Positions 16,463 through 28,321 of a DNA stretch of 36,462 nt are shown in pieces. Source of the stretch: Patescibacteria group bacterium (GTDB taxonomy: Bacteria; Patescibacteriota; Patescibacteriia; SG8-24). Under the pieces are notes generated by a model. That model did not search any database. It was given only the letters and a program-made list of their open reading frames with translations, and was not told the origin of the DNA. A program made the position numbers and the translations under genes. The number at the start of each line of letters is the position of its first letter. Positions within the stretch are counted from its first letter, which is position 1. The stretch spans positions 1-36,462 of the forward strand of contig JAHJAU010000070.1 of NCBI GenBank assembly GCA_018813785.1, in the 5' to 3' direction.

Positions 16463-17293
16463 ATGCGGACGATGAACAAGACCGTCGGAACAGTGATTTC
16501 TGTTCTGGCCACGCTGGCGATTGCGCTCGGCGCCTGCTCTGGCTGTCACCAAACCAGTGGTGGCAGTACCACACCTGAAGGGGAACATGAGTGTCCTCCC
16601 TGCCCACCCTATCTTGGCCAGGATCCAGAAATTGATCCACTGGCTGGTTCAACACTGGACGACGGCTTCACCGATGCTGAACGCACTCAGTTCATTCGAG
16701 ATAACGTTCAGTCTACAGTACGCATCGTGATCGCTAACCACAACAAAAACATCGGCCTTGGCTTTGGCGGTGGAACTGGTGTGGCAATCACGCCCGGTCT
16801 GGTGCTGACTGCAGCCCACGTGGTGGATGAATTTCGATTCATGTATGGCGTGCGACGACTGCTGGCTCGCGATAACCTAACCATTCTGCATCCACGCGCT
16901 CTGGATATGCGAGTCGCGGCTCAGACCAATGAACTGCGCGACGTAGCTCTGCTCGAAACCAGAGATGGAGAACAATTCGATCGACCGATACCCATGTCCC
17001 TAGGGCGAGCGATCAATGATGGTGATCTACTGTGGCAGTTTGGCCGAACGACCCGTTGGTCACGTGGTCGGGTGCTGAACGCAGCCAATCCACGATCGAT
17101 AAAAATCGAATTCACGGTGGCTGGTGGTGATTCCGGTGGCCCGGTGGTTCGACCTGATGGCACGCTGGCCGGCATCATTCTGAGCCGTAGCCTCGATCCA
17201 GAAGACCGTGTAGACGACAACACCAGTAATGTTGCTTTCTTCATCACGCTTGATGAAGCCCTTCGAGGCCTGAGTCAATCACGCCTTCGCTAA
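16463..17293 (+). CDS. Trypsin-like (S1) serine protease, probable lipoprotein
   Basis: Catalytic triad motifs TAAHVV, DVALL and GGDSGGPV; signal peptide with LGAC lipobox; GGAGG RBS. Confidence 0.88.
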   Translation: MRTMNKTVGTVISVLATLAIALGACSGCHQTSGGSTTPEGEHECPPCPPYLGQDPEIDPLAGSTLDDGFTDAERTQFIRDNVQSTVRIVIANHNKNIGLGFGGGTGVAITPGLVLTAAHVVDEFRFMYGVRRLLARDNLTILHPRALDMRVAAQTNELRDVALLETRDGEQFDRPIPMSLGRAINDGDLLWQFGRTTRWSRGRVLNAANPRSIKIEFTVAGGDSGGPVVRPDGTLAGIILSRSLDPEDRVDDNTSNVAFFITLDEALRGLSQSRLR

Positions 17294-17552: not shown

Positions 17553-18350
17553 ATGTATCATCCCAAACGAACGCTGACAAAGTTATTCTTGTCGGCTCTA
17601 CTTTTGACGGCAGCTTTTGCCGTCACGACATGCACTCACCCTCCAGGAGGCCGGATACCACGTTCACCAGAATGTGTTTACGTTCCGGATCCTCCCGAAA
17701 ATCCGCCCGAAGATCCGTTCGTTGCGGATCAGGATGACGATGGCCTGAATGAGCAACAACGCCTGGATTTTATTCGACGCGGTGTAGCCGCCACCATTCA
17801 AATTAGATCCCGGCGTTACTCAGCCAAGAATGGTTATTCCTTTCACAGTGGCTCCGGTGTTTTCATCGATGATTCACACGTGCTCACGGCTGAGCATGTC
17901 GTGCGCGATACTGTGGATCGCTATGCTATATTACGACGATTGGTCAGCGGCGGATTAAATATCGGTTATCTTCGCACAGAGCGCATCACGATCGTTGCGA
18001 CTAACGCAGAGCATGATGTGGCACTGCTCAGAGTTCACTCTCCGCCAGAAATGGCCTACCCACTTCCGACGGCCAGAAACTGGACACCGCAACATGATGA
18101 ATTACTCTGGCAATTCGGTGTCCGCACTGGTTGGTCTCGCGGCCGTGTAGTGCGACAAGTGCCAGATAATCTGCCGGTCAGCACTCATGGCTTGGTCGAG
18201 ATGAGAATACTTGGCCAGGCTGGTGATTCCGGCGGACCAGTATTGAATGTCCGCGGTGAAATCGTTGGCTTGGTGCTTCGGGGTAACACCGAAGCTGGAC
18301 GTCAATTCTTTGTACCGATCGATACGGCTCTGCAAGCAGTCGGCCGATAA
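17553..18350 (+). CDS. Trypsin-like (S1) serine protease, paralog of 16463..17293
   Basis: TAEHVV, DVALL and GDSGGPV; shares DP...DDG..E.R..FI and LLWQFG..T.WSRGRV with the upstream gene; AAGGAGG RBS; signal peptide. Confidence 0.88.
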   Translation: MYHPKRTLTKLFLSALLLTAAFAVTTCTHPPGGRIPRSPECVYVPDPPENPPEDPFVADQDDDGLNEQQRLDFIRRGVAATIQIRSRRYSAKNGYSFHSGSGVFIDDSHVLTAEHVVRDTVDRYAILRRLVSGGLNIGYLRTERITIVATNAEHDVALLRVHSPPEMAYPLPTARNWTPQHDELLWQFGVRTGWSRGRVVRQVPDNLPVSTHGLVEMRILGQAGDSGGPVLNVRGEIVGLVLRGNTEAGRQFFVPIDTALQAVGR

Positions 18351-21142: not shown

Positions 21143-21177
21143 AAAAAACCGGCCGCACCCCTGATGGATGCGACCGG
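21143..21177 (-). terminator. Terminator of the dikinase-phosphatase module
   Basis: Minus strand CCGGTCGCA...TGCGGCCGG followed by TTTTTT immediately after the metallophosphoesterase stop. Confidence 0.7.
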
Positions 21178-21185
21178 CAAAGAGA

Positions 21186-21926
21186 CTAGTAACCAATGAG
21201 CAGACGCTGCCCCAGTTCCGAGGGCAGTCCCAGCTCGGCAATCTGACGAACTACAGCTGCGACATCGTACTCAACGCGTGGCAGACTGAAACTCCAGTCG
21301 CTGGTGTCGAGCAGGCCGTAACAGGCTCGCGGGTCATCGTCGCGCGGCTGACCAACACTGCCGACGTTGATCAAGAACCGCTCATCGCCGGACAATACCA
21401 GTTCGGTCTGGTGATAGAACGAACCGCTCCGTTCACCGAAGACCTGGGGCTCATGCGTGTGTCCGACGAAGAACACTCTCAGGTCATCGTGCGGCAAACG
21501 TTTGAGCTCAATTCCCGCGCCGACCGAACCCTCGACGTAAAAAAACGTTGCCGGATGAGAAAACGATGCATGGGTGAAAGCCAGGCCATGATCCTCATCC
21601 CAGAGACAGTCGGGCAGACCGTCCAGATAGTCGAGCTGAGGCTGTTGCAACGCGAGAGCGGTGAACCGAACCGCTTCTTTGGCGATTTGGTTGAAGTTAC
21701 GAGCCCAGCGCTCTGAATCGAGCACCGCAGCCTCGTGGTTACCGAGCACTGTCTTGATCCGCTCGAGCTGGATCCGGATCACACACTCTCGCGGTTGCGG
21801 ACCGTACCCGACCACATCCCCCAGACAGACCATCTGATCCACGCCGCCACGCGCGCGGATATCAGACAGGACTGCCTGCAGTGCGACGTAGTTTCCATGA
21901 ACATCAGAAATAATCGCGAACCGCAT
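21186..21926 (-). CDS. Calcineurin-like metallophosphoesterase (YfcE/MJ0912-like)
   Basis: ISDVHGN, LGDVVGYG, GNHE, THAS, GHTH and NVGSVGQPRD motifs; AAGGAGG RBS. Confidence 0.92.
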   Translation of the reverse strand: MRFAIISDVHGNYVALQAVLSDIRARGGVDQMVCLGDVVGYGPQPRECVIRIQLERIKTVLGNHEAAVLDSERWARNFNQIAKEAVRFTALALQQPQLDYLDGLPDCLWDEDHGLAFTHASFSHPATFFYVEGSVGAGIELKRLPHDDLRVFFVGHTHEPQVFGERSGSFYHQTELVLSGDERFLINVGSVGQPRDDDPRACYGLLDTSDWSFSLPRVEYDVAAVVRQIAELGLPSELGQRLLIGY

Positions 21927-21968: not shown

Positions 21969-22463
21969 TCAGCGCAAATTCAGATATTGCGAGGGCACTT
22001 CCCGGCCTCGCAACGAGAAAATCCCTTCGGCCTGAGCCATGGTCTCGACAGCGTGGTGGCAATGCCGCTCACGCACCGCGGCGATCGGGTCAGGCGTTTC
22101 TTCCTCGGTCTCCAGGATGGCGATGAGTGACGCGAGCAGTGTACCGGTTCGCCCATGTCCGGCGGTGCAGAAGCACAGCACTCGCTCCCCGGTCTGGTGG
22201 CATCTCGCGAGCAGCGGGATTACCCGCCCGCACAAGAACTCCACCCAGTCGTCCGGCACACCGCCGAAGTCCGGCAATTGAGCGGATAGCACCAGGAAAA
22301 AGTTGCCGATGCCCAGTGGGGGCAATTGTTCGGTGAGCGGAATCAGCACATCGAACTCGGACAGGATGTCCGGGTCGAGGTGCATGGCTCCAGCGACATA
22401 GATCGTATAGGGGCCAACCTGGATCGGCTGGCCGGTGTGTGAATGAGCATCCTTCTGTCTCAT
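21969..22463 (-). CDS. Cys-based dual-specificity/tyrosine phosphatase (CX5R)
   Basis: PDFGG acid loop, FCTAGHGRTGT P-loop, VRERHC..AVET..Q; GGAGG RBS before ATG at 22463. Confidence 0.88.
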   Translation of the reverse strand: MRQKDAHSHTGQPIQVGPYTIYVAGAMHLDPDILSEFDVLIPLTEQLPPLGIGNFFLVLSAQLPDFGGVPDDWVEFLCGRVIPLLARCHQTGERVLCFCTAGHGRTGTLLASLIAILETEEETPDPIAAVRERHCHHAVETMAQAEGIFSLRGREVPSQYLNLR

Positions 22464-22602
22464 CTCGTCCTCCGCAGCTAATCCGTTACCCCTTGTAACA
22501 GATGAGCAGTGAGAGGGGGAAGCGCTGAAAAGATTCAACGCTTCCCCAGATGCCCCCGAGAGAAATCAGAGAGCGGTTGGGTGATCAGACCGAAACAAAG
22601 AT

Positions 22603-23013
22603 CTAGTAGGCCTCCTCCGCCTCGTCGTCGTCCGCCTCGTCCGCGGCCGACGACGAGCAGCACCCGGCCGCTGCCTGCTCGACGCGCTTCATGGCGGCCT
22701 TCACCACGACCACCTCTCCGCCGACCGCCTCGAGTGCGGCGCGCGCGATCCCGATCGCCTGGAGCAGCTCGCTGTCCGGGACCACGCACGAGAACCGGAA
22801 CTCCCCGTCGCTGGGCGTCTTCCAGCCGGCCGGGATGTGCGGCCGCATCATCTCGGCACCGATCATATCGGTCGGCTCCAGCCTGATCCGACTGGAGTCG
22901 CCACCGTCCAGGATACGCCGACTCAATCGGCCGGCCGCGTTCTCCGTCAGCAGCTGGTAGCTACCGGGGATCCCCTCGGTACCGGCGAACCGATACCTTC
23001 CGTTCTTTGCCAT
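22603..23013 (-). CDS. Hypothetical protein (136 aa) with an acidic C-terminal tail
   Basis: AAGGAGG RBS; GC-rich codon use; ends CCSSSAADEADDDEAEEAY; lies inside the module. Confidence 0.75.
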   Translation of the reverse strand: MAKNGRYRFAGTEGIPGSYQLLTENAAGRLSRRILDGGDSSRIRLEPTDMIGAEMMRPHIPAGWKTPSDGEFRFSCVVPDSELLQAIGIARAALEAVGGEVVVVKAAMKRVEQAAAGCCSSSAADEADDDEAEEAY

Positions 23014-23172
23014 GACTTCCTCCTTACCCGTCTCCTCCCCTTGAGAAGACGGCTAATAGAGGGAGAAGCGCCAAAAGGCGGGCGACGCTTCTCACTCAAG
23101 AAGATTTCCGAATCGCCAGACCAGGCGACCCAGAAAGAGCTTTATGATTTGAAAGAACTTGAGCAGGAGCCA

Positions 23173-25536
23173 CTACCACAGACCGCCGGCTTGTCCCTGA
23201 AGGTACAGCGTGGATATTTCCGGCGAAATGGTACCAGCCGCTTCGCCAGCAATAAATTTGTCGTACAACCCCCTGACGCCACCCTGGTGATCACGCTTGG
23301 TGTCCAATAGTTGATCCAGATGCCAAAGGTTTCCGACCAGAAAATCTTTGGTCTTGTTGAACATCCGACCACCGTTGTGTTGCAGATCGAAAGCGTGATC
23401 CACGAACACCGTGGCTGTAACCTTGCCTTCGAGCCACGACAGGGCGGCCGCGCAGATATCCGCCCACTTGATTCCACCAAACGACGTACTCCATTTCAAA
23501 TGGCGGAAGGCATTTTCTGCCCGCTGCAGAAAAATTATCTGTTGCTCGAGCGGCAGTAACTCCAATTGGTCAGCAACAGACCTCTGCGCTTCGATTCGAT
23601 CAACGCCTTCGTCAATCACCCCATACTTTTGTAGTTCAGCATGGACCAACTCTCGATCTAAGATCAGAGGGTTGCTATAGGCACTGCTTCGAACGTGACG
23701 CAACTCTCCGGCTGCTGCCAAGACGATATAAGTGGCCATCAACTCAGCGGCCTCCTGATGTTCTTGATGCTGGAGCTTTTGGACTGCTCTCGAAAGCTCG
23801 GCTGTGGCATTGAGACTACTACTGGCCGCAGCCATGGCTTCGATCAGGTAGAAGCTCCTCGCCAACTGCACCACGTTAATACTCTCGCCTCGTCGCTCGA
23901 GGGCGATTCGTGGGGCGTGAGCCCTTTTGTCAATCTCCGGCTGATGGATCCTCTTGTACCACCGCAGGAAAATTTTAATTTCTCTACGGTGGATGCCGAA
24001 CTCCATGGGCAGCTCACCCTGAAGCACCACACCACTCGTGCCGTCAACTGAAACCCACTGAAGGGGCGACAGCTTCAAGCATAAGTCCGCCTGAACACCC
24101 ACTACCGCCGGTTTGTTCAGACTCCGAGCCACCACCGCGGCATGCGATGTCGCGCCGCCGACTTCGGTGACGATAGCATCAGCCGCCAGCATCCCTGGTA
24201 GATCATTGGGTGAAGTCTCTGTCCGAAACAGCACCACCGAACAACCAGCTCCCTTCAATTGACGAGCTTGCTCCGAGGTAAGGGCCGGCCGGCCGGTCAC
24301 TGCTCCAGGCGAAGCCGGAATACCGCGAGCCAGAAAACGATTGGGGTCAGCCACAGCCTGAGCCAGCTCATTAGTCCGAAAGACTGACCGATCCAACTGT
24401 GCTAGCTGAGCTGTAGTCATCGCCCTTCGCTCAAGCGCTTGCTCCTTGGTGAAACGCTTTTCCCAAACCATCTGCACGGCATGAGAAACGGCCGCCACCG
24501 GGGTGCGCTTGGCCAGTCGAACCTGGAGAATGAACAGTCGGCCAGATTCGATCGTGAACTCTACATCCACGACGTCGTCAAAGTGCTGTTCGAGCAGTAT
24601 ACAGATCTGACTCAGCTCCTGATAAACCCCGGGATTCCAACTTTCGAGTTCAGCGATCGGTCGCGGTGTCTTAACACCAGCCACCACATCTTCGCCTTGA
24701 GCGTTTGGCAGCCACTCACCATAGAGCTCGCGCTCGCCGGTGGCGACATTGCGAGAAAAAACAACTCCAGTTCCGGAATCGTCTCCTCGATTACCGAACA
24801 CCATGGCTTGAATGTTAGCGGCGGTTCCGAGCCAACTGGGAATGTTGTTGGCTCGGCGATAAGCCCGGGCACGCTCTGACTCCCAACTGCGAAACACAGC
24901 ACGGCTGGCCATCGTTAACTGAGTCCAGACGTCGTCTTCCATGGAACCGGCGCGACGCTGAATCAGTTGCCGACAGTTGCGGCAGAACTTCTTCAGAGCT
25001 CTGACATGGAACGACTCACGATCGTGATCGCACCCGTTCTTCTGCCACAACTTATCAAACTCACTGGCTGCGATCCCATGAACCACGGTACCGTAACTGA
25101 CCAGAAATCGCCGATAGCAATCCCAAGCGAACCGTTCGTCTCCGGTTTCCCTGGCCAGCGCCAGAACTGTGTCCGGATTAAGTCCGAGATTCAGGATTGT
25201 ATCCATCATCCCGGGCATGGAGTGCTCGGCGCCGGACCTGACCGACACCAGCAGCGGCTTGACCAAATGACCAAAGCCACGACCAGTCGACTGCTCCAAT
25301 CCTTCCATTTCTCGAACGATCTGACCAAACTGCCGACGCGGCAGATGGCCATGCTGTAGTGACGACCGCCCCACGCTTGTGGTGACGGTGAAACCGGGCG
25401 GCATGGGTACACCAAGGTGCACCAGTTCCGCCAAGGAGAAACCCTTGCCGCCACGCTTGGCGGCTGACAGATGGGCGGAACTTTCGAATCCGCAAACCAC
25501 CTGACGATTCCGCCTGCGAGACGCTTTCTTTCCCAT
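23173..25536 (-). CDS. PPDK-derived dikinase: ATP-grasp domain + phospho-His swivel domain + unrecognised C-terminal domain (not canonical PpdK)
   Basis: GGKG, VSVRSGA..SMPGMMDTILNLG, QAMVFGN..SGTGV, AQGEDVVAG, DVEFTIE..L..LQ.R and GGATSHAAVVAR (His465). The PEP/pyruvate barrel motifs (MIE.PRA, SFGTNDLTQ) are absent. Confidence 0.9.
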   Translation of the reverse strand: MGKKASRRRNRQVVCGFESSAHLSAAKRGGKGFSLAELVHLGVPMPPGFTVTTSVGRSSLQHGHLPRRQFGQIVREMEGLEQSTGRGFGHLVKPLLVSVRSGAEHSMPGMMDTILNLGLNPDTVLALARETGDERFAWDCYRRFLVSYGTVVHGIAASEFDKLWQKNGCDHDRESFHVRALKKFCRNCRQLIQRRAGSMEDDVWTQLTMASRAVFRSWESERARAYRRANNIPSWLGTAANIQAMVFGNRGDDSGTGVVFSRNVATGERELYGEWLPNAQGEDVVAGVKTPRPIAELESWNPGVYQELSQICILLEQHFDDVVDVEFTIESGRLFILQVRLAKRTPVAAVSHAVQMVWEKRFTKEQALERRAMTTAQLAQLDRSVFRTNELAQAVADPNRFLARGIPASPGAVTGRPALTSEQARQLKGAGCSVVLFRTETSPNDLPGMLAADAIVTEVGGATSHAAVVARSLNKPAVVGVQADLCLKLSPLQWVSVDGTSGVVLQGELPMEFGIHRREIKIFLRWYKRIHQPEIDKRAHAPRIALERRGESINVVQLARSFYLIEAMAAASSSLNATAELSRAVQKLQHQEHQEAAELMATYIVLAAAGELRHVRSSAYSNPLILDRELVHAELQKYGVIDEGVDRIEAQRSVADQLELLPLEQQIIFLQRAENAFRHLKWSTSFGGIKWADICAAALSWLEGKVTATVFVDHAFDLQHNGGRMFNKTKDFLVGNLWHLDQLLDTKRDHQGGVRGLYDKFIAGEAAGTISPEISTLYLQGQAGGLW

Positions 25537-25696
25537 TTCCCTCTCCTGGGTTTGACCCGGTGCACCGGGCGACTTTGTTTTGTTGTTGATTGTAAATATC
25601 TAAAACGCCTTAAGGCGTTTGATTGGAATAGCCAAAAAGTTACAGCAATTTTCTGACTGACCCAACCAAGAGCCTAAGCCATTTTTAAAACTCTAA

Positions 25697-25725
25697 AATA
25701 TAGCAAATCTCTGCGTAATTGTCAA
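25697..25725 (-). promoter_or_regulatory. Sigma70-like promoter of the dikinase module
   Basis: Minus strand TTGACA-N17-TATATT with an extended -10 TG. Confidence 0.7.
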
Positions 25726-25740
25726 GATTATTAAACAAGT

Positions 25741-25769
25741 GACCCAGCTCCAATTTCTGGAGCTGGGCC
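25741..25769 (-). terminator. Strong hairpin closing the non-coding region (probable terminator)
   Basis: CCCAGCTCCA-GAAAT-TGGAGCTGGG followed on the minus strand by TCACTTGTTT, a weak U-tract. Confidence 0.55.
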
Positions 25770-25789
25770 GTAAGGTAACAAAAAAATTT

Positions 25790-27158
25790 TCTTAGTGGCC
25801 ATTTGTCATGCGCCCCCAAGGCCGTGCGGAGGCACTTCCGTTTTTCAGGTCAGCGCCATGACTGCGCTTTTTCGATCGAATGTAGTAGTTCGACATCGAA
25901 CGTCGATCTAGACCTGAAGCATCATCAGCCTGAACCAAGGCCGAGAATTGACATCCTCGTGGAAGTAGCGAGGCTGTCCAAGCGGCAAGAATCGCTTCCG
26001 TGGTGGTTTGGTGACCACCTTTTCCACTTTCCTATTTCTTGAAGGGCTTGTCGCAACGGGCTTTACCCATCGCCTAGGTTCATCCTTCAGCTAAAACCTG
26101 ACCAATCATAGACTCATCCACTCGTCTTGTATAACTTTTCAAAAGCGTTATACATCAGCGTGAATAAGCCAAGCACTCTTCTCCGCCCTTTATTAATTAT
26201 TTGCATTGAAAAGTGTTACTGATCAGGCCCTAACCCCGTCTGTCCGGGGTGCGGAGACGCCACTTCCGCTTCAGTTGTCCCATCAATCCAGTGATGGGCG
26301 TGAAATCGGTCGCTGGTAGAATGACAGACTCCAACCAACTCCACTGTTTCAGTGGCAGACACAGTACACCGCCATCAAACAGCTTCCCTCTTTTTAACGG
26401 TGCCTTCACCGAGGGAGATGAAAACACCGCATAAACTCACCTCACCAACGGTTTTATGAATTCCGCTGGCAAAATGATCGGACGGGGCCTATTCGGTCTC
26501 TATCATTCAGGCGATTTCCAACCGCCGGGTTGAAAAAACCTTTCGGGTACCCTTAGCCGCCAGGTGTCTAGCCGTCGGCTAACTCGATTCAGCTTTCAGT
26601 TGATGATTCAGTTCGGTTGCGAGCCGTACCAGATCGTCAATCTCGGTTCTTGATACCTGCCCGATTTAGGCATCAAGCAATAAACCGCAATGACCTCTGA
26701 ATCTTAAAGTCACCGTCTCTTTATCGACCCGCCGGTCGCGTAGGGAAAGAGACTACCCAGCTATTTGATGAAAGTTCTCTGATCGTCCTACCCAGGATGA
26801 TCCAACTCCCACCTTGATGGCCGATCCGGACACGCCGCTGCCCGACCTAATCACTCCTCGGTCTGCTTACCAAAAAGAAAATAGGTTTTAATTTGCTCGT
26901 TTACTCCTTGAGCTCAGTGTGCAGCGGGGATTTCACCCGCACTCCCTCCACGCCTGGTTTATAAAAATTTTTTACCAGGTTGAACGGATTCAGCTTTGGT
27001 CTGAACACACAAACGAGCGGACCTTTTTAAATAAGTGCTTAGAGCAGCGCACCTATCGAGCTGACTTTTTGTTAACGGGCTCCGTCAGCGATTGAGCCCT
27101 AGTAAACGCACATCCTAATCCTCCCTCTTTATCTGAACCTGCGACGACGTTGTCGCAG
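25790..27158 (-). ncRNA. Candidate cluster of large structured non-coding RNAs, family unknown
   Basis: No credible ORF in ~1.4 kb; many hairpins, mostly with G-U pairs and A-rich loops on the minus strand; end-to-end closing helices; AT-rich linkers; own promoter and terminal hairpin. Confidence 0.6.
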
Positions 27159-27164
27159 AGAAAA

Positions 27165-27193
27165 AAAATAACATAAAAAGTCGGATTAGTCAA
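27165..27193 (-). promoter_or_regulatory. Putative promoter of the non-coding region
   Basis: Minus strand TTGACT-N17-TATTTT with an extended TG; the predicted start near 27158 coincides with the first hairpin. Confidence 0.45.
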
Positions 27194-27208
27194 GATTGTG
27201 TTAGGTAC

Positions 27209-28321
27209 CCCCAATTCAATACATAACCGAACACTTCAGTGTAACATTGCCGATTAGGCATAACTGTAGTAATCATGTCAAAAAAGACGCATTTGAAGGA
27301 GTTCGAGAGGGAGAAGATCGAGTACTGGCTGAGGCTGGGGTTCGGCAACAACGAGATCGCCAGGAAGCTGGCTCGCAGCGGATCGTCAGTGTCCGACGAG
27401 ATCCGCCGCAACAGCAACCCAGACGGTAAGTATACGGCGGCGGATGCCCAGCGCCGAGCCGACCAGAGACGAGAGCGAAAGAAGGGTCGGAAGCTCGAAA
27501 GGGACGCCGTGCTACACGACTACGTAGTCTCCCTGCTCCGCGGCGACGGCATGCTACAGGGCTGGGCGCCGGACGCGATCGCCGGGCGGCTGAAGCACTA
27601 CCCAGAGCTGGTGCCGGAGGAGTTGCGGGGGAAGACCGTCTCGCACGAGGCGATATACCAGTACATATACGAAGGCGAGGGAAAGTGGGAGGCGCTGTAC
27701 CACCACCTGCCCAGGAAGCGCAGCCGCAGGAGGATCAAAGAGGGCAGGAAAACGCGTCAGCAGAGCAAAATACCGAACAGGGTGAGCATCCGGCTACGAC
27801 CGGCCGAAGTCAATGAGAGGAAGACGTTCGGCGACTGGGAAAGCGACACCTTCGAGGGTACGGGATCGGCGTGCGGATCTGTGCAGGTGGAGCGCAAGTC
27901 GAGGAAGATTCACCTGCACAGGACGGCGGACAAGACCAAGGAGGAGACCGAACGAGCCATCAGGCAGACCATCGAGTCATATCCGGAATACCTGCGGGGC
28001 GAGGCGTTCCGGACGATGACCCTCGACAACGGTGGCGAGGGCGCGAACCACGGGAAATTGAGGAGGGAATACGGCATCGACACCTACTTCTGCGACCCGT
28101 ACTGCTCGTGGCAGAAGGGCTCGGTGGAGAACGCCATCGGCCTCGTGCGGCTGAGGTTCATTCCAAAGAAAACAAATCTCTCGACCCTTTCGGATCGAGA
28201 GTTCATGCTCATGGAGGACTTCCTGAATGACATGCCCGGAAAGTCTCTCGGGCACCTTACGCCGAATGAGGTCGCGGCGCAATATTTGTGAGAGGTGTTC
28301 GGTTATTAGCTTGAATTTGGG
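27209..28321 (+). mobile_element. IS30-family insertion sequence
   Basis: Imperfect terminal inverted repeats CCCCAATTCAATACATAACCGAACAC and GTGTTCGGTTATTAGCTTGAATTTGGG around a transposase; GC-richer than the flanks; no clear target-site duplication. Confidence 0.88.
27275..28291 (+). CDS. IS30-family DDE transposase
   Basis: N-terminal HTH (IARKLARS.SSVSDEIRRN), VSHEAIYQYIY, FGDWESDT, TLDNG.E and YFCDPYCSWQKGSVEN. Confidence 0.93.
   Translation: MSKKTHLKEFEREKIEYWLRLGFGNNEIARKLARSGSSVSDEIRRNSNPDGKYTAADAQRRADQRRERKKGRKLERDAVLHDYVVSLLRGDGMLQGWAPDAIAGRLKHYPELVPEELRGKTVSHEAIYQYIYEGEGKWEALYHHLPRKRSRRRIKEGRKTRQQSKIPNRVSIRLRPAEVNERKTFGDWESDTFEGTGSACGSVQVERKSRKIHLHRTADKTKEETERAIRQTIESYPEYLRGEAFRTMTLDNGGEGANHGKLRREYGIDTYFCDPYCSWQKGSVENAIGLVRLRFIPKKTNLSTLSDREFMLMEDFLNDMPGKSLGHLTPNEVAAQYL

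Follow-up and report, generated by a model that had tools for sequence, protein, structure and literature searches.

A helical domain at the acceptor position of a dikinase-like gene

We analyzed a 36,462-nucleotide contig of a Patescibacteria group bacterium (GenBank assembly GCA_018813785.1, contig JAHJAU010000070.1; hereafter the window), whose minus strand carries a gene related to pyruvate, phosphate dikinase (PPDK) next to genes for a small protein and a cysteine phosphatase. The dikinase-like gene (23173..25536, minus strand, as are all of its features; protein P0001) is one uninterrupted open reading frame (ORF) translating to 787 aa, and its N-terminus is kept in the relatives P0003 and P0004. 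It encodes a PPDK-type ATP-grasp nucleotide-binding domain (24352..25500, approximately residues 13-395; Pfam PPDK_N, PF01326, E 1.7e-38), in which the GGKG, SVRSGA..SMPGMMDT and AQGEDVVAG blocks align by phmmer with the solved PPDK 5jvn, and a phospho-histidine swivel domain (24031..24237, residues 434-502 by Pfam envelope; PEP-utilizers, PF00391, E 3.3e-22). The T-S-H signature that marks the catalytic histidine of PPDK is present here as TSHAA, starting at residue 463, with His465 encoded at 24142-24144. A linker alignable to that of PPDK follows (23911..24030, residues 503-542), the alignments to TIGR01828 and to PPDK chains of the Protein Data Bank (PDB) reaching query residues 543-577, and the remainder of the protein is an all-alpha domain (23176..23910, approximately residues 543-787) that replaces the phosphoenolpyruvate (PEP)/pyruvate TIM barrel. 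Nothing past residue 505 was recognized in a Pfam scan of the whole 787-aa protein. An original prediction made from the letters of this DNA had quoted four strings from the region, VSVDGTSG, GELRH, FGGIKW and FVDHAFDLQHNGG; all are present, at residues 495, 610, 686 and 711, respectively, and as motifs they recur family-wide rather than by chance.

Comparison with models of known dikinases placed the end of the resemblance to PPDK near the end of the linker. By phmmer, P0001 aligned with Flaveria PPDK 5jvn over residues 28-577 (E 1.8e-110) and with Clostridium symbiosum PPDK over residues 27-543. Against TIGR01828 it scores 525.6 bits, short of the equivalog cut-off (843.45), with a match that spans profile positions 3-557 of 865; PF02896 (PEP-utilizers_C, the barrel) gave no match at E ≤ 1 in the whole protein or at E ≤ 10 in the last 285 aa. 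PEP-utilizers_C was likewise not found anywhere in this 97%-complete genome, which at 1.19 Mb is of Patescibacteria size. Models for PEP synthase also scored below their cut-offs (TIGR01418, 93.4 versus 739.75 bits; NF005057, 112.4 versus 598), and that for rifampin phosphotransferase (NF041857, 50.9 bits against a cut-off of 999) aligned to the His domain alone. The domain order is unlike that of rifampin phosphotransferase, as had been claimed: that enzyme has ATP-grasp, RIF-binding and His domains in this order, and in its NCBIfam models the stretch that aligns to the His domain is C-terminal. The model NF004531 'pyruvate, phosphate dikinase', in contrast to TIGR01828, is passed (476.7 bits, cut-off 456), through a match to residues 10-515 that leaves about 270 residues outside the model. 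Because this cut-off is passed, annotation pipelines would call the gene PPDK. The mislabelling as ppdK that had been foreseen is thus real, and sequence sources label the relatives 'pyruvate,phosphate dikinase', a name also used in PMC12038007.

We modeled the C-terminal piece with AlphaFold2 (AF2) from a 141-sequence alignment. The model is confident (mean predicted local distance difference test score, pLDDT, 90.6; predicted template-modelling score, pTM, 0.86) and all-alpha, with 12 helices and only short strand bridges, and the domain is therefore predicted not to be a beta/alpha barrel. This agrees with the earlier description of a mostly helical region without TIM-barrel character, and the single ORF, the missing PF02896 match and the 12-helix model together bear out the claim that the pyruvate barrel is replaced in frame by a conserved domain. 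The first 40 modeled residues are the linker (pLDDT 66-79); because residues 503-542 form this lower-confidence linker and align with that of PPDK, the compact domain starts nearer 543 than 510. The extent first given to the domain, about 510-787, therefore keeps its C-terminal end and loses its start.

No match to PEP-utilizers_C or to a characterized acceptor domain emerged from Pfam, the PDB or Foldseek. The last 285 aa matched no Pfam family and, by sequence search, no PDB chain at E ≤ 10; a profile of 40 domain family members found neither a solved relative nor a PPDK chain in the PDB, and a Pfam search of these 40 members at E ≤ 5 returned PEP-utilizers and nothing else. A PDB hit to YukD was discarded as an 18-residue chance match (E 0.87). 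Foldseek against the PDB gave no match at E ≤ 1e-3 (best E 1.1, TM ≤ 0.21). VIA-align against 48,161 representative chains gave a best Z of 5.8 (root-mean-square deviation 4.1, 101 aligned residues) to a generic helical bundle, which is under the level that the method rates as meaningful for helical proteins, and realignment of Foldseek's own PDB list reached a best Z of 4.7. Leads from the Atlas were all below 0.9 (clusters of a Thermodesulfobacteriota 'PEP-utilizing enzyme family', 0.87; Rph_4th, 0.76), and all Atlas structure rows for the domain had TM ≤ 0.35. Among viral models in BFVD, four phage proteins matched the domain model (E 3.7e-7 to 1.7e-5, TM 0.56-0.62), which fits a sequence match to the phage family phrog_20946 (E 7.9e-19; residues 33-232 of the 285-aa piece versus profile positions 22-215 of 336). 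As far as the model allows a judgment, there appears to be no convincing fold match for the domain, whose fold we leave unassigned; a missing match does not prove a new fold.

Conservation of the helical domain with and without the dikinase

A HMMER search of 1.84 billion cluster representatives recovered 1222 matches to the domain at E ≤ 1e-3, of which 155 pass E ≤ 1e-10 and 10 pass E ≤ 1e-30. Architectures were counted by Pfam in 56 of the domain matches: PPDK_N and PEP-utilizers lie ahead of the domain in 32, PEP-utilizers only in 13, no Pfam family in 10, and an SH3_15 repeat only in one. Many short matches that look stand-alone are fragments from short contigs, such as P0009, a 283-aa protein on a 1989-bp contig that falls in the same cluster as a 782-aa protein. 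The domain is fused to the His domain in two dikinase lineages, one with a long PPDK-like nucleotide-binding domain (TSH/TCH) and one with a short nucleotide-binding domain (TCH). The GGx(T/S)xH motif is retained in 87 of 93 full-length representatives and the catalytic His motif in 44 of 47 locus ORFs, which indicates that the dikinase engine is intact.

These numbers bear on the simplest alternative, that the gene encodes an ordinary or decaying PPDK in which the barrel has degenerated or diverged strongly to give the C-terminal part. Passage of the NF004531 cut-off would fit this, as would the PPDK name used by the sources and in PMC12038007; yet the TIGR01828 match stops at position 557 of 865 with 525.6 of the 843.45 bits called for, PF02896 is missing even at E ≤ 10, a PDB search with the domain profile brings up no PPDK chain, the model is all-alpha with high confidence, and a decaying region would not be so strongly conserved across 1222 representatives. 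We give this explanation almost no credence.

Residue conservation was counted in a single profile alignment of three architecture classes, namely fused (53 copies), stand-alone in phages (10) and dikinase-less (12). Twelve positions show little or no variation in any of the three: G687, W691, I694, D713, D717, L718, H720, N721, F726, K728, L744 and K747. Most of them fall in a core motif, D713-x3-D717-L-x-H720-N721-x-G-x2-F-x-K728 (23353..23400, minus strand), in which D713, L718, H720, N721 and K728 are invariant in each aligned copy of every class (one fused row is gapped there), D717 is replaced by H in 2 of 10 phage copies, and F726 is present in 49 of 53 fused copies and invariant in the other two classes. 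A second family motif, G687-G688-x2-W691 (23464..23478, minus strand), lies at a helix start in the model (model residue 187); G687 and W691 are invariant in the three classes, and G688 in two of them and in 10 of the 12 dikinase-less copies. Y603 and E611 are conserved wherever their region aligns. In the D-H-x2-D-x2-H-N cluster to which attention had been drawn, D713, D717, H720 and N721 are thus invariant or nearly so in three classes, while position 714 varies, with His kept by 45 of the 53 fused copies and Arg found in 7 of the 10 from phages. The wider expectation of conserved R, H, D and N residues fared similarly, being borne out by H720, N721, D713 and D717 and only in part by R613, R647 and H714. 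Judged by 1222 representatives and these near-invariant residues, the domain is a large, constrained family and not the degenerate tail that had been considered as its alternative. C-terminal extensions past the domain in long relatives are not alike.

The domain also occurs without a dikinase in the same protein. Stand-alone copies, for which the original prediction had proposed to look, are found in Vibrio phages. In addition, five proteins (L053, L055-L058; 386-753 aa) carry it at the C-terminal end of a helical-repeat N-terminal part, with neither dikinase nor phosphatase within 6 kb, and three giant proteins (P0015, P0102, P0131; 1247-2263 aa) hold two or three copies each. Such dikinase-less forms had escaped the original prediction, as had the phage link and the conserved partner genes described below. 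Because these copies keep the invariant residues without a dikinase, the pocket need not depend on a swivelling phospho-His. We therefore considered that the helical domain might be an autonomous enzyme or ligand-binding module, which the dikinase regulates or feeds, for example by phosphorylating the domain or a bound cofactor. All 12 dikinase-less copies (L053, L055-L058, P0015, P0102, P0131) keep every invariant residue, tblastn detected no PPDK N-terminal part within 6 kb in L053 and L055-L058, and the domain is a separate protein in cultured phages. Set against this are the positions in which the domain is mostly found. Of 56 related loci from species-representative genomes, 51 have a PPDK-like N-terminal part immediately ahead of the domain, and 46 of these hold a single ORF of at least 640 aa with the domain motif. 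Similarly, 45 of the 56 Pfam-scanned representatives carry at least the His domain, split forms of the domain stay adjacent to a dikinase (Vibrio phages, L111, L112), and the helical domain sits exactly at the acceptor-domain position of PPDK and PEP synthase. On this evidence we regard the autonomous-module explanation as doubtful.

A mobile-looking cassette with a phosphatase and a small protein

Downstream of the dikinase-like gene lies a gene for a small partner protein (22603..23013, minus strand, 136 aa), whose homologs were found by hidden Markov model (HMM). Neither Pfam nor the PDB gave a match to it, and 22 small proteins of the family had no Pfam match; the family alignment (A4) shows G11, Y19, R42, R44, E46, P47, W64, R73 and S75 to be invariant. 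The Atlas model of the small protein (pLDDT 0.35) was too poor for use. Many homologs (L014, L016, L017, L019, L025 and others) end in one or two basic motifs, K.PGAN.ASRWSL.TL.AK (A4 columns 200-290), which Pfam does not recognize; the window's protein ends instead in an acidic tail, DEADDDEAEEAY.

The next gene encodes a cysteine phosphatase of the dual-specificity/protein tyrosine phosphatase (DSP/PTP) type, assigned by profile and motifs (21969..22538, minus strand; 189 aa as listed, the true start being uncertain). Its Pfam matches, PTP-SAK and Tc-R-P, are weak and under the gathering cut-offs. The protein has the CX5R(S/T) P-loop of this family, C124-x5-R130-T131 (Cys124 codon 22167-22169), with D90 upstream as the general-acid Asp, and D90, C124, G129, R130 and T131 are invariant in an alignment of 25 sequences (A5). 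The CX5R motif is intact in 37 of 37 phosphatase ORFs, and the phosphatase profile matched small PTPs of known structure, namely 5z59 (6e-11), DUSP23 (1e-10) and SsoPTP (1e-9).

We found that the association of these genes extends well beyond the window. With HMMs built from the window's proteins, the phosphatase was found in 32 of the 56 loci and the small protein in 34; 23 loci have both, and 43 have at least one of the two. When all ORFs of the 56 loci were clustered, the dikinase family spanned 53 loci and the phosphatase/small-protein cluster 43, while the next family reached six. In two loci (L015, L026) phosphatase and small protein are fused, in both orders, and the small protein is duplicated in several. 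A Pfam scan of 150 flanking ORFs from 45 loci showed mixed housekeeping genes, with no recurrent partner and no classical defence island; flank repeats were lineage-local (PIG-L plus alpha/beta hydrolase in six loci, a HAD hydrolase in five). None of the four proteins (dikinase, small protein, phosphatase and the metallophosphoesterase described next) matched a family of known anti-phage defence systems in PADLOC-DB 2.0 at E ≤ 0.01.

The metallophosphoesterase gene (21186..21926, minus strand, 246 aa; Pfam Metallophos) belongs to the same GC-rich block and, apparently, to the same transcription unit, and matches phrog_246, 'NinI-like Ser/Thr phosphatase' (E 9.9e-19). With no matches in 58 loci searched and none in the relatives' cassette loci, it is not a conserved cassette member. 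A promoter-like site, TTGACA-17-TATATT with TG before the second hexamer (25697..25725, minus strand; 11 of 12 consensus matches), lies about 160 nt upstream of the dikinase start codon, and a terminator-like hairpin with a 13-bp stem and then a T run (21148..21178, minus strand) lies just past the metallophosphoesterase stop codon, so placed that the two bracket the four minus-strand genes. Such sites are not enriched over shuffled sequence in the region, at 4 versus 2.6 expected for promoter-like and 8 versus 5.7 for terminator-like sites. In the RNA library X11, contigs overlap parts of the genes for the dikinase, the small protein and the phosphatase with at least 99% identity, at depths like those of the DNA runs, which is not proof of transcription; the same library leaves 21255-21756 uncovered, which is equally uninformative.

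The composition of the cassette invites a second alternative, a protein-phosphorylation switch in which the dikinase phosphorylates the small protein or a recruited host protein and the DSP-type phosphatase resets it, in the manner of Enzyme I/HPr but ATP-driven. The phosphatase profile is indeed closest to small protein phosphatases (Tk-PTP 5z59, DUSP23, SsoPTP); the small protein has hydroxyl residues that are invariant (Tyr19, Ser75) or nearly so (Thr12, Thr15), occurs as a fusion with the phosphatase in two loci and in duplicate in several, and the window's apparent transcription unit includes a lambda-type Ser/Thr-phosphatase-like gene. The small protein is nevertheless missing from 22 of the 56 loci and has no detectable homolog in phage cassettes, save a sub-threshold similarity to a fifth phage gene (hhalign E 0.0026, probability 12%), and small DSPs act also on RNA ends, lipids and glucans. 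We judge such a switch quite unlikely.

Phages carry related sets of genes. A tblastn search placed the domain in 31 phage records, of which 29 are Vibrio phages about 80 kb in size. The gene order shared by vB_VneS_J26 and vB_VpS_PG28 is a PPDK-like gene (691/685 aa), a small protein, a DSP-type phosphatase and the stand-alone domain (337/326 aa), after which come a gene of about 290 aa and DNA polymerase A. The stand-alone phrog_20946 protein of J26 aligned with the window's domain by hhalign at 98.6% probability (E 1.1e-15). The small protein of these phages is CsrA-like in PG28 (27.7 bits). Two IMG/VR contigs (L062, 89.7 kb; L063, 48.8 kb) hold the fused three-gene form, and the metagenome loci L111 and L112 are further split forms, each with the dikinase adjacent and a phosphatase beside the domain. 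PG28 (L002) and L111 have two DSP-type phosphatase genes that flank the stand-alone domain. PMC12038007 presents the dikinase gene, J26 ORF98, as an auxiliary metabolic gene for a true PPDK that has a TIM barrel, although only 489 of the 691 ORF98 positions are aligned there.

The fifth phage gene (L001:7548-8399, L002:8422-9315; 284-298 aa), annotated 'pyruvate decarboxylase' or 'transporter', showed no relation to the helical domain. Its C-terminal part has a GT..Y / T..G / RVR pattern resembling the N-terminus of the bacterial small protein; hhalign comparisons of the two gave E values of 0.021, 0.0095 and, with a deeper alignment, 0.0026, at a probability of only 12%.

We next considered how the cassette is distributed among close relatives. 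The domain is present in 3 of 61 related genomes, including this one, where it is single-copy; identities to the relatives' copies are 39-42%, that of the same-genus copy being 39%. Translated similarity between relatives is confined to window positions 21993-25576, and the relatives' flanks (10 kb and 19 kb) gave no match to the 36-kb window. The GC content is 0.53-0.66 over 21-25.5 kb versus about 0.47-0.50 beside it. Given its patchy occurrence among relatives and their differing flanks, the cassette looks mobile and horizontally moving.

Several further observations concern the surroundings. At 1.7 kb upstream of the dikinase is an IS30-like insertion sequence element (27209-28306), which has a transposase ORF (27275-28291; HTH_38 + rve) and 28-nt imperfect inverted repeats at 27223-27250 and 28279-28306. 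Contigs of three runs diverge from the window at 27208/27209, which implies that some of the population lacks the element or has another version of it. The intervening 1.7 kb (25600-27200) has no ORF longer than 79 aa and no Rfam match at E ≤ 0.1; an RNA-library contig over 26229-26899 has a depth of 24.3 versus about 2-12 elsewhere, the highest of the region examined, and the stretch could be a non-coding RNA or a decayed gene. Elsewhere, positions 1-2000 have a GC content of 0.627 compared with 0.42-0.53 in most of the window, two minus-strand ORFs (182-1483 and 1505-2518) have no Pfam match, and two adjacent trypsin-like serine peptidase genes lie on the plus strand (16463-17293 and 17553-18350).

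A putative phosphotransferase system and its known relatives

Taken together, the observed architecture, conservation and cassette suggest that P0001 is a PPDK-derived histidine-swivel phosphotransferase whose helical domain serves a non-pyruvate acceptor, and that it belongs to a self-contained, mobile cassette with a phosphatase; we put the probability of this reading at about 55%. By analogy with PPDK and PEP synthase, the ATP-grasp domain would pyrophosphorylate His465 from ATP, the gamma-phosphate would be shed to Pi or water, and the swivel domain would bring the remaining beta-phosphate to a second site, here the helical domain of about 245 aa. The invariant Asp, Asp, His, Asn and Lys residues could then make up a putative acceptor or Mg site that serves a non-pyruvate substrate. 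Under the writer-eraser logic that we infer for the cassette, the CX5R cysteine phosphatase would probably erase the same mark, and the small protein would be a candidate adaptor or substrate. As to the kind of target, the nearest solved relatives of the phosphatase, by profile against the PDB, are protein phosphatases, and we would guess at a macromolecule, either a protein or the end of an RNA, in preference to a central metabolite.

A number of observations weigh against this phosphotransferase reading. The dikinase-less proteins (L053, L055-L058) keep the domain with all its invariant residues, and the giant proteins P0015, P0102 and P0131 carry several copies of it. Neither partner gene was found in 13 of the 56 loci; among these are L033 and L036, whose contigs are short (6.8 kb and 5.9 kb), and the distant forms L053 and L055-L058. 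Phage and bacterial small proteins are not related to each other. Two arginines that would be fitting for an anionic acceptor are conserved only in part (R613 in 36 and R647 in 35 of the 53 fused copies), and net charge yields no hint of the target.

That the cassette looks mobile and is carried by phages suggests a function in conflict more than one in core metabolism. We further propose, tentatively and at well below even odds, a reversible modification spread by phages, in which the dikinase with its domain of unseen fold would phosphorylate a macromolecule (a protein, or an RNA or DNA end) and the phosphatase would reverse this, used by phages in taking over hosts and by ultra-small bacteria in fighting invaders or hosts. 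Whatever the target, the cassette is probably an undescribed system that both adds and removes phosphate, and 'new dikinase class', the term of the original prediction, is a fair label for the architecture.

PPDK-family enzymes represent one of the few cellular ways to move phosphate by a swinging histidine, and each acceptor domain known so far (for pyruvate, glucan, rifampin and a prodigiosin precursor) has defined new biology. The domain described here occupies the acceptor position with no Pfam entry and no solved relative, in more than 1000 sequence clusters. It is also carried by cultured, tractable Vibrio phages, in which it has been published as a carbon-metabolism gene, and because of these phages the potential for discovery is real. 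Identifying the substrate would correct a recurring mis-annotation, in which 'PPDK' genes of viruses are listed among auxiliary metabolic genes and genomes of the candidate phyla radiation (CPR) are credited with a PEP/pyruvate step that they lack, as this genome does with PEP-utilizers_C. It would probably also reveal a new phosphorylation target in phage-host conflict.

A description of the domain or the cassette was not found in the literature searched, PMC7824862 included. A similar published arrangement comes from Desulfovibrio, for which Korte et al. 2014 (PMC4001038) describe a 'nitrate cluster' of DVU0246 (dikinase-like, 744 aa) and DVU0245 (PTP/DSP), and report that among D. vulgaris transposon mutants that of DVU0246 is nitrate-resistant and that of DVU0245 nitrate-sensitive (fitness -6.04). 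This pair resembles the cassette in that a barrel-less gene annotated as PPDK adjoins a PTP/DSP gene; it differs in being tied to a two-component system, which the window's cassette is not. Look-ups by sequence with P0129 and P0138 returned no match. A first metagenome scan gave no matches; in a second, 3 of 80 loci had the domain, the rest being mostly generic PEP-utilizing enzymes.

Among characterized enzymes, PPDK itself (TIGR01828; 1kbl/1dik from C. symbiosum, 5jvn from Flaveria) shares with P0001 the ATP-grasp domain, the TSH swivel domain and the linker, and differs in having the PEP/pyruvate TIM barrel where P0001 has an unrelated all-alpha domain. The short 'PPDK' proteins of PRK05878/NF004531 (534-position model), which we take to be actinobacterial, match the N-terminal 515 residues of P0001 over model positions 8-465; judged from model length alone, they likewise lack the barrel, and their members were compared through the model only. 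The Vibrio phage 'PPDK' (phrog_18609; J26 ORF98) has the same engine (tblastn E 2e-84), but in the phage system the dikinase, the phosphatase and the domain are separate genes, with the DSP-type phosphatase between the other two, and the phage dikinase carries a 190-aa tail of its own that is unrelated to the helical domain and showed no relation to the small protein either. Rifampin phosphotransferase and PigC/RedH also belong to the PPDK superfamily and use the swivelling His to phosphorylate a non-pyruvate acceptor, but their His domain is C-terminal, with model positions 764-861 of 864 aligning to P0001 residues 404-504. Alpha-glucan water dikinase is a PPDK-family dikinase with a non-pyruvate acceptor module, and it is paired with the DSP-type phosphatases SEX4/laforin, which remove its mark. 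A Pfam search detected no carbohydrate-binding module in the window's cassette proteins or in the small-protein homologs, and nothing points to a glucan as the target. The cassette resembles glucan water dikinase and SEX4/laforin in its logic, a swivelling dikinase set beside a DSP-type phosphatase, while differing from them in acceptor module and domain order.

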